Shown here: in pieces, positions 38,650 through 40,761 of the stretch | Layout: every line of letters begins with the position of its first letter | Numbering within the stretch: the stretch's first letter is position 1 | Assembly (NCBI GenBank): GCA_963792785.1 | Contig: CAWBXO010000004.1 | Location: 578,278-642,277 of the forward strand | Length of the DNA stretch: 64,000 nucleotides | Direction: 5' to 3' | Source of the DNA: an uncultured Acidobacteriota bacterium | Lineage (GTDB): Bacteria; Acidobacteriota; Vicinamibacteria; Vicinamibacterales; CAVVIG01 | The notes under the pieces: generated by a model | The model's input: the letters and a program-made list of their open reading frames with translations, nothing else | What the model was told of the DNA's origin: nothing | Databases searched by the model: none | Program-made: the position numbers and the translations under genes

Positions 38650-40761
38650 ATGCACGCGCCCATCAAGTACGTCGAGAAGGGGCTCTCGGTGGCCGCCAAC
38701 GGCGCCTGGGTGGTGTTCAGCCGGCTCAACCGCATTATCGCGGAACCCGTCGTTCACGCCGAAGTGGTCGGACAAGCCGCTGCTGAAGTCCTAGGAGAAG
38801 ACCAAGCCGCCGCTCGGCTGGCCGCGCGAGACCGACTCGCTGTGCCCGGTCTGCACGCGCGAAGCGCGGCAGGAGATTCTCGACGGCAAGAAGGACGTGA
38901 GCGTCCTGCTGAACGAGAAGGTCGGCGAAATCAAGGCGACGATTCTCGAGCGCGACGGCAAGATCCTGATGGTGAAGGACTGCCCCCTTCACGGCCACTT
39001 CGAGGACGTGATGGCGATCGACACGGACTTCTTCAAGCACCTCGAAGAGGTCTTCCCGGGCCGCGACATCCGCGCGCACAGCGACGAGAAGCTGCACAAC
39101 CACGGCAGCAGCACGATCCAGCACGGCCGCGGCTCGGTGCTGACGGTGGACCTCACCAACCGCTGCAACATGATGTGCGACCCGTGCTTCATGGACGCGA
39201 ACCAGGTCGGGTTCGTCCACGAGCTGACGTGGGACGACATCAAGACGGTGCTCGACAACGCGATCACGCATCAAGCCGCGACGCCAGATGTCGGTGCAGT
39301 TCTCGGGCGGCGAGCCGACGATCTCGCCCTACTTCCTCGACGCGGTCCGCTACGCGCGCAAGGTCGGCTACAACAGCGTCCAGGCGGCGACCAACGGCAT
39401 CGAGTTCGCCAAGGACCCGGAGTTCGCGAAGGCGGCGGCCGAGGCCGGCCTGCGCTACGCGTACCTCCAGTTCGACGGCATCGGCAACGCCGCCAACGCG
39501 CATCGCCGCGTCGGCAACCTGTTCGACGTGAAGCTGCGCGCGATCGAGAACCTCTACAGCCGCGGGCGTGGACATCGTGCCGGTCGTGACGATCGTCAAC
39601 GGCGTGAACAACGAGCAGGTCGGCCGGATCATCGAGTTCGCGCTCGACAACCCGAAGAAGATCAACTTCCTCTCGTTCCAGCCGGTCTCGTTCACCGGCC
39701 GCGACGAGGAGGTCACGCCGGAGCGCCGCGCGGCGCAGCGCTACACGCTGTCGCACCTGGCGCACGACGTGAAGAACCAGACGGGCATCGGCGAGCCGAT
39801 CCGCGACTGGTTCCCGATCTCCTTCATGGGCAGCTTCACCGACTGGGCCGACGTCACGCACGGCGCCGAGAAGGAGTTCGGCCAGCTCACCTGCGGCTGC
39901 CACCCGAACTGCGGCGTCGGCATGGCGGTCATGATCGACAAGGAAACCAAGGAGGCCGTGCCGGTCACGGCGTTCCTCAAGGCCGAGCAGCTCGCCAAGG
40001 ACGTCGCCGCAGGTCACCGACGCCGGCCGCGGCCGGTTCCTGTCGGTGTTCGGCATGGCGCTCGCGCTGGTGCGCAACTACGACTCGTTCAAGTCGCCGA
40101 CGCACTTCAAGCTGACGGACCTGCTGAAGAAGTTCGACAAGACCTTCGGCGCGACCAAGTCGGCCGAGAAGGGCAAGTACGGCCGCGTCGAGGGCGATCG
40201 GACGATCGGACGACATCGCCAAGCGCCGCGCCGACCGCTGGAACTTCCTGTTCATCGCCGGCATGTGGTTCCAGGACCTGTTCAACTACGACTTCCGCCG
40301 TACCGAGATGTGCATCATCCCGTATGCCACGCAGCAGGGCGAAATCTCCTTCTGCGCCTACAACACCGGCATCGGCTGGCGCAACATCATCGAGAAGATG
40401 CACATGACGGCCACCCTCACCAAGTGGTACGAGGAGCACGGCCGCCACGAAATCTTCGCCGGCGGCAAGGCCGTGCCGCTCAACTCGACCGAGCACTCGC
40501 TGCAGCTGAACGCGGAAGCCGTGCGCGCCGGCGCCCAGACCGACCTCGACGAGCTCGGCATCGCCAAGAACGCCCGCGAGGAGAAGCTCAAGGCGCGCCA
40601 GGGCGGGGCCGACAAGGACGAGAAGCTACCACGCCGAGATGGCCAAGCTCTACGCCCAGCATGTCCTCAAGGAGCAGCCCACCCTGCAGATCCAGGGCCT
40701 CGGCGGCTCGAAGAAGAAGCAGGACGTGCAGGAAGTCCTGCACGATAAGGAAACCCTGTAG
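38650..40761 (+). pseudogene. COG1964-type radical SAM protein (tetraether-lipid-synthase Tes/GDGT-MAS-like) with at least 6 frameshifts and 1 in-frame TAG as sequenced
   Basis: Pieces lie in alternating frames: MHAPIKYVEKGL..., FTPKWSDKPLLKS-TAG(38792)-EKTKPPLGWPRETDSLCPVC...KDCPLHGHF, LTNRCNMMCDPCF (CX3CX2C), QMSVQFSGGEPT, VDIVPVVTIVNG...CGCHPNCG, FGMALALVRNYD, MWFQDLFNYDFRRTEMCIIPYATQQGEISFCAYN, and the tail ...LHDKETL. Shifts lie near 38745, 39266, 39561, 40008, 40205 and 40625. Confidence 0.7.

Follow-up and report, generated by a model that had tools for sequence, protein, structure and literature searches.

A Tes-like radical SAM gene of an uncultured acidobacterium: six single-base insertions and an in-frame TAG as probable consensus errors of the deposited sequence

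Archaeal tetraether lipid synthase (Tes, GDGT-MAS; MJ0619, PDB 7TOL/7TOM; MA_1486) is the closest described counterpart of the gene treated here, and its bacterial homologues, acidobacterial ones included, were proposed for the synthesis of brGDGTs (branched glycerol dialkyl glycerol tetraethers; Zeng et al. 2022, PMC8941075; Halamka et al. 2022, PMC10087280), as an earlier note on this DNA, made from the sequence alone, had rightly stated. The brGDGTs are behind a widely used palaeoclimate proxy, and the acidobacterial Tes-like enzyme is a leading candidate for the synthase of these membrane-spanning lipids. Another radical SAM (S-adenosylmethionine) enzyme that joins two lipid tails, Mss of Thermotoga maritima and Thermoanaerobacter ethanolicus, was described as just remotely related to Tes and as having no homologues found in Acidobacteria (PMC13159169), and a Tes-like mechanism was postulated for it (PMC13459092). 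Iso-diabolic acid is produced by Acidobacteria of subdivisions 1, 3, 4 and 6, which are without Mss; of 14 acidobacteria that produce this acid, only 3 gave Tes homologues in strict-cutoff screens (PMC13159169). The present gene, of the same phylum and family as the acidobacterial homologues named above, is located at 38650–40761 (+) of the window, i.e. the whole stretch of 64,000 nucleotides that was analysed (contig CAWBXO010000004.1 of an uncultured Acidobacteriota bacterium). As deposited, it is broken by six one-base insertions and a TAG codon; with a probability of roughly 85% these are consensus errors of the deposited sequence and not mutations in the organism.

The coding signal of 38650–40761 could not be read in one frame; three-frame translation and blastx against the open reading frames (ORFs) of relatives gave seven segments in frames 1, 2, 3, 1, 2, 3 and 1, with a third-position GC content (GC3) of 0.85–1.00 in the correct frame of each. 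A MAFFT DNA alignment with nine orthologues reduced the disruption to six +1 shifts of one extra base each; the three methods agree, and the earlier count of at least six frameshifts plus a TAG at 38792 becomes exactly six insertions plus that codon. Deletion of the extra bases gave 701 codons and a stop, in line with the product of ~700 aa that had been expected. The lesions, each extra base being placed by the alignment and set in square brackets, are as follows:

38740 (+): extra base 1, ATTATC[G]CGGAAC, codons 30/31; column missing in 9 of 9 aligned orthologues; codon conservation 0.44 and 0.87.
38792–38794 (+): in-frame TAG, codon 48; in relatives the codon is TAC/TAT (Tyr) or TGG (Trp), and the column is 91% Tyr.
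39267 (+): extra base 2, ATCA[C]GCATC, codon 206; ACGC in the window, ACC or AGC in relatives.
39560 (+): extra base 3, TACAG[C]CGCGGGC, codon 303.
40010 (+): extra base 4, GCCG[C]AGGTC, codon 453; GCAG in the window, GAG or CAG in relatives.
40207 (+): extra base 5, ACGAT[C]GGACGAC, codon 518; ATCG in the window, ATC or ATG in relatives.
40626 (+): extra base 6, GAGAAG[C]TACCAC, between codons 657 and 658.

As the cause of shift 5, a tandem duplication of 8 bp (GATCGGAC twice, ~40190–40207) was considered and rejected; its phase is wrong, and relatives carry nearly the same sequence minus one base. Reassignment of TAG was rejected as well: TAG ends 15 of the 42 confident ORFs of the window. 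The ORF lists of the window (1–64000) are rich in long spurious antisense and off-frame ORFs, e.g. 36904–38532 (+) and 39271–40077 (−), and the GC3 phase was used to separate real frames from such high-GC antisense ORFs.

A scan of one genome per species gave 80 loci (L001–L080), in 78 of which the gene is uninterrupted. The corrected protein was compared with 120 homologues; it shows no difference at 359 invariant columns and none at 140 further columns conserved to at least 95% (499 in total). For intact homologues, the mean number of private changes at columns that are otherwise invariant is 0.48, so that the corrected protein is no worse than a typical one; replacements at conserved residues, the mark of relaxed constraint, were not found. 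These figures bear on the reading, left open in the earlier note, that the gene was recently inactivated, i.e. that six insertions and a nonsense mutation cost a Vicinamibacterales population its Tes-like enzyme. The deposited ORF cannot be read through, both immediate neighbours are intact, and one other relative (L030) is likewise frameshifted, all of which would fit a genuine, very recent pseudogene; L030, however, is itself a Nanopore metagenome-assembled genome (MAG), and neutral evolution accompanied by six indels should have yielded tens of substitutions, so the absence of any change at the 499 conserved columns argues that no decay has taken place. High GC3 is also kept in the correct frame.

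The kind and the placement of the lesions speak in the same sense. Bacterial pseudogenes are biased toward deletions; here 6 insertions and 0 deletions were counted, none of them within a homopolymer longer than 2. All seven lesions touch amino-acid-variable codons (conservation 0.26–0.91), while codons conserved below 95% make up just 29% of the gene; random placement would give this result with P of about 1e-4 to 4e-4. Lesions scattered regardless of polymorphism, with deletions at least as frequent as insertions, as random mutation of a pseudogene would leave them, were thus not observed. Essential tsaD and about ten other housekeeping genes on the contig carry the same lesions. The pseudogene reading is accordingly not upheld and is given a very low probability. 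Slightly lower still is the chance that the lesions are real and mark a soil Vicinamibacterales lineage caught just after the loss of a near-universal and extremely conserved acidobacterial Tes-like enzyme, a natural knock-out; such a reading must accept simultaneous frameshifts in tsaD, mtnA and the nucleoside-salvage cluster of the same contig. If the disruption were true, the natural loss could be used to test whether the enzyme is the source of iso-diabolic acid or of brGDGT lipids.

Two alleles of relatives stand side by side at four of the six insertion sites (ACC/AGC as ACGC; GAG/CAG as GCAG; ATC/ATG as ATCG; AAG/..C as AAGC), and the TAG of codon 48 is a chimera of TAC and TGG. Retained double alleles are not predicted by real mutation or by random read noise; they are predicted by a consensus drawn from two populations, and they favour such a mixed origin. 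Accordingly, if the lesions are errors, collapsed reads of mixed populations are their source with somewhat better than even odds. The locus is most probably a normal, monocistronic Tes-like gene, functional in vivo, with its own ribosome-binding site and terminator; a long-read metagenome assembly would have collapsed reads of two or more co-occurring related populations, and where these differ the consensus would have kept both alleles (ACGC, GCAG, ATCG) or mixed them (TAC + TGG to TAG). The DNA of the gene is 84–88% identical to that of orthologues of other genera, vs 72–80% for the flanks, and since it is more conserved than its surroundings the gene may be prone to recruit foreign reads from co-occurring Vicinamibacterales. 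The best locus, L001, is ~80% identical in DNA to the window.

The same errors could have arisen without any mixing of populations, from nothing more than long-read noise at low coverage or without polishing, e.g. in a patchily polished hybrid assembly. Error-dense patches do alternate with clean stretches, and low-coverage MAGs of a related project show sequencing-error effects (PMC12313526); noise, however, should hit variable codons in proportion (34% expected vs 100% observed) and should favour homopolymers (0 of 6 sites in a homopolymer longer than 2), and neither the double alleles at four sites nor the TAC/TGG chimera would be expected from it. This origin is regarded as doubtful, although far less so than true gene loss. 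Programmed recoding, by which ribosomal or transcriptional frameshifting and stop read-through would give the full-length protein from the deposited sequence, is rejected: the six shifts all run the same way and together make a multiple of three, but none of the six sites is slippery or homopolymeric, the 78 intact orthologues need no recoding, and TAG terminates many window genes, the Tes-like gene included. To our knowledge, there is no system with six recoding events in one gene.

With regard to provenance, the closest genomes are Nanopore-only MAGs (Flye plus Medaka) from soils of high microdiversity (PMC12313526). Damage is also not confined to the Tes-like gene: at least 19 further frameshifts were found elsewhere in the window, several of them in the normally essential tsaD. 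The local error hot-spot offered in the earlier note as the other possibility is therefore favoured as to error, but it is not unique, other damaged places being a peptidase gene with an extra base at 29916 and a stretch at ~47.7–60.8 kb. Absence of decay, indel spectrum, placement, other damaged genes and provenance of the relatives are five independent lines that point to an artefact.

Several points weigh against this assignment. The artefact was inferred from sequence comparison, and the Nanopore provenance is that of the relatives. Consensus indel errors of long-read MAGs resemble the present case in that genes perfectly conserved in other respects are interrupted by clusters of single-base indels; Nanopore consensus errors are, however, classically homopolymer deletions, whereas the lesions of the window are insertions at non-homopolymer, naturally polymorphic codons, a difference which in turn points to collapsed strain variation. 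Finally, the ~47.7–60.8 kb stretch is not unusually conserved (~79% identity to L001) and has deletions besides insertions, as plain noise would have it, so that the recruitment of foreign reads by conserved genes does not suffice for all of the damage; low coverage and strain variation are equally possible causes there.

One C too many at 29916 (GAGTAC[C]GAAGG) splits the M13 peptidase gene at 28251–30971 (+); the frameshift is masked, since the original frame runs on without a stop into the following gene and yields a spurious ORF of 906 aa. The stitched product has 674 aa and fully covers Peptidase_M13_N (1–381) and Peptidase_M13 (1–205). The error-dense stretch extends over ~13 kb, its ~47700–58100 part being on the (−) strand. 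At 50–58 kb, the MtnA Pfam domain is split among three frames (profile positions 43–130, 129–173 and 175–229) and that of TsaD between two (22–263 in one frame, 128–190 in another), and the domains of a UPF0047 protein, of thymidine phosphorylase and of a CNT nucleoside transporter are likewise divided across frames. The latter two belong, with a PNP_UDP_1 phosphorylase and a cytidine deaminase, to a nucleoside-salvage cluster, the Pfam domains of which are split across frames. Two genes midway through the ~47700–58100 part, one for PEBP and one NUDIX-like, appear intact by eye. Compared with two references assembled from Illumina reads, the ABC-transporter genes at 47.7–50.1 kb carry frameshifts, and ABC-transporter Pfam domains, too, are split across frames. 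A gene at 60200–60800 (+), beginning MEPKQAEEIVRRL, has two frame changes, a +1 shift followed by a −1 shift, so that the damaged zone reaches beyond the HEAT-repeat gene at 58102–60306.

A first hidden Markov model (HMM) of the GC3 phase overcalled shifts, e.g. in the genes 45956–46888 and 46792–47811, which are in a single frame against locus L042; frameshift counts were therefore based on homology and on Pfam splits. A stop-aware version of the HMM gave 8–12 same-strand frame changes per 4 kb in 44–60 kb vs 1–2 in 0–36 kb.

The corrected protein was assigned as follows. Pfam gave Zn_ribbon_HMPTM (the HMPTM/MJ0619 N-terminal zinc ribbon, PF23545; E 1.4e-13) and Radical_SAM (PF04055; E 1.7e-18); the best NCBIfam model was tetraether lipid synthase Tes (NF045702; E 6.7e-93, 311.9 bits, below the curated equivalog cutoff of 450 bits for the whole protein). 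The model of the TrsS radical SAM (seleno)protein (NF045646) gave 214.2 bits vs a cutoff of 490, with a match limited to residues 93–378. The sole strong sequence match in the PDB was GDGT-MAS 7TOL (E 1.8e-63, residues 93–592; 34.8% identity over 466 aligned positions), the alignment to MJ0619 running over the cluster-binding motifs. The AlphaFold model of the orthologue P0001, 91% identical to the window protein, has a mean predicted local confidence (pLDDT) of 83.9 and a predicted template-modelling score (pTM) of 0.85; against 7TOM/7TOL it gave E 1.6e-35, a target-normalised template-modelling score (TM) of 0.87–0.88 and a root-mean-square deviation of 3.3–3.9 Å, the next structure following at E 4e-8.

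Ligands of GDGT-MAS were taken from PMC9433317; the chain numbering minus 20 is the MJ0619 numbering, which was checked on C33, H36, Met439 and Tyr459. All five motifs listed in the earlier note (CPVC...CPLH, CNMMCDPC, CGCHPNCG, MCIIPY and SFCAYN) were found, and the sites predicted from them are:

38843–38992 (+): rubredoxin-like iron site, C65-X2-C68 (CPVC) ... C111-X2-H114 (CPLH); PF23545; C111 and H114 align with MJ0619 C33 and H36.
39164–39187 (+): radical SAM cluster motif CNMMCDPC, C172-X3-C176-X2-C179; PF04055; aligns with GDGT-MAS C98, C102 and C105.
39892–39912 (+): CGCHPNC motif; C420 aligns with GDGT-MAS C338 of the C-terminal auxiliary cluster; the clade has C414 and C416 as additional cysteines.
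40263–40355 (+): rest of the C-terminal auxiliary [4Fe-4S] site by the 7TOL alignment; M537 (= labile Met439), C553 (= C455), Y557 (= Tyr459) and C567 (= C470).

C553 and Y557 lie within MCIIPY and C567 within SFCAYN; by alignment, the predicted C-terminal auxiliary [4Fe-4S] site is conserved (C420, C553, C567, M537, Y557). The window protein is thus like archaeal Tes in its rubredoxin-like CX2C...CX2H and radical SAM CX3CX2C motifs, in the C-terminal auxiliary residues with the equivalents of Met439 and Tyr459, and, as modelled for P0001, in its overall fold. It differs in the N-terminal auxiliary [4Fe-4S] cluster: the loop aligned with GDGT-MAS C73, C77, C80 and the accompanying His, HNHGSSTIQHGRG, is free of Cys and was modelled with low confidence (pLDDT ~55 in P0001). 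In alignment and model, the fold and three of the four metal sites are conserved relative to GDGT-MAS. Further differences are the spacing of the rubredoxin site (42 residues vs 20 in GDGT-MAS), an extra N-terminal helix, a conserved segment of ~60 aa, the extra CxC pair (C414, C416) and ~110 additional aa at the C-terminus.

An exhaustive search at E up to 1e-30 gave 609 cluster representatives, and the full-length ones were aligned (A2); an alignment of 150 sequences that included metagenomic fragments was too ragged (A3) and was superseded by A4. In A2 the family splits in two, an archaeal type with CPxxCGxCxxH and a bacterial clade, 37–62% identical to P0001, which is without this motif throughout and has in its place an N-terminal extension and an insertion within the rubredoxin domain. 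In the acidobacterial clade of ~700-aa proteins, two additional cysteines (C414, C416) are invariant, and both termini carry conserved extensions that archaeal Tes does not have; the clade sits near the cutoff of the strict screen of PMC13159169. The gene is thus, as far as sequence and predicted structure indicate, an acidobacterial Tes/GDGT-MAS-like radical SAM enzyme. The identity put forward in the earlier note stands at the level of the family (Pfam, NCBIfam, 7TOL), and needs to be narrowed in one respect: because the N-terminal auxiliary cluster is missing and the score lies under the Tes equivalog cutoff, the protein is, on sequence grounds, a member of a distinct bacterial clade and not a straightforward Tes equivalog. 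An already recognised family gains a further orthologue by it, with a candidate role in membrane-spanning lipid synthesis that was proposed earlier in the literature.

By analogy with GDGT-MAS, the gene product may act like Tes. The CX3CX2C cluster would cleave SAM to give a 5'-deoxyadenosyl radical, which would abstract H at the terminal carbon of a lipid tail; a sulfide of the C-terminal auxiliary [4Fe-4S] cluster (C420, C553, C567, M537) would then take up the substrate radical, and a second SAM turnover with a second tail would form a C(sp3)–C(sp3) bond and with it a membrane-spanning lipid, e.g. iso-diabolic acid or a brGDGT precursor. This mechanism is carried over from GDGT-MAS, and both substrate and product are putative; with a bacterial host, the former may be a fatty-acyl or alkyl chain, not phytanyl as in archaeal Tes. 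Three observations weigh against the lipid function: as of 2025–26, bacterial Tes homologues are without experimental confirmation (PMC11868695, PMC13459092), the protein lacks the N-terminal auxiliary cluster that GDGT-MAS has, and all-against-all clustering of the flanking ORFs of the 80 loci gave no family common to more than 10 of them and no lipid genes.

More than 100 intact proteins of ~700 aa, 86–91% identical, were found in Vicinamibacterales MAGs and metagenomes; orthologues 75–78% identical occur in Terriglobia, Bryobacterales, Blastocatellia, a MAG of Ca. Solibacter usitatus and the isolate Acidipila rosea DSM 103428. In the set of 120 sequences, 359 of the 701 columns are invariant, and identity between acidobacterial classes is 75–78%. 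The Joint Genome Institute (JGI) annotation of some orthologues already reads 'tetraether lipid synthase'. Judged from these sequences, the acidobacterial clade is very strongly conserved and without the N-terminal auxiliary cluster of archaeal Tes, and for both reasons it is a distinct target for functional testing. Naive ORF calling at the present locus gave fragments of 161–293 aa, and screens of long-read MAGs for the presence of Tes homologues will overlook such a gene or score it wrongly; lesions found only at polymorphic codons, with both alleles kept, are a usable signature that separates collapsed-strain errors from true pseudogenes.

Locus L030 (L030:10001–12086; MFD05454.bin.2.212) has one frameshift at about residue 616 and is the sole clear disruption among the 80 relatives. 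Contigs labelled Betaproteobacteria (L004), 'uncultured proteobacterium' (L007) and Bifidobacteriaceae (L013) carry orthologues of 81–94% identity; synteny of the Vicinamibacterales type was seen in L007 as well, and the three are probably mis-binned or mislabelled acidobacterial contigs.

The gene of the window has signals of its own on both sides:

38637–38643 (+): Shine-Dalgarno-like GGAGAGG, 6 nt 5' of the ATG at 38650, read directly in the sequence.
40773–40809 (+): intrinsic terminator with a 13-bp stem (9 G-C pairs) and a 4-nt loop at 40773–40802, then the T-rich tail TTTCTTGT.

The terminator had been placed at 40775–40808 in the earlier note, which differs by a few bases only. A scan of 38380–40900 for sigma-70-type promoters found none. 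The statement that both neighbours are intact holds: the divergent upstream gene at 37351–38430 (−), for a flavoprotein, covers positions 1–305 of 305 of Pyr_redox_3, and the gene at 40851–41483 (−), for which no Pfam match was obtained, fits its L001 counterpart in a single frame. FolE (GTP cyclohydrolase I) follows at 41465–42064 (−), intact as well (profile positions 2–178 of 179 covered). The neighbours of the window recur in close Vicinamibacterales relatives only, and the linkage of FolE, two genes downstream, to the Tes-like gene is likewise kept among these alone (9 loci). The archaeal homologue MJ0619 was formerly annotated as a pterin methyltransferase; the linkage of FolE to the Tes-like gene is probably coincidental.

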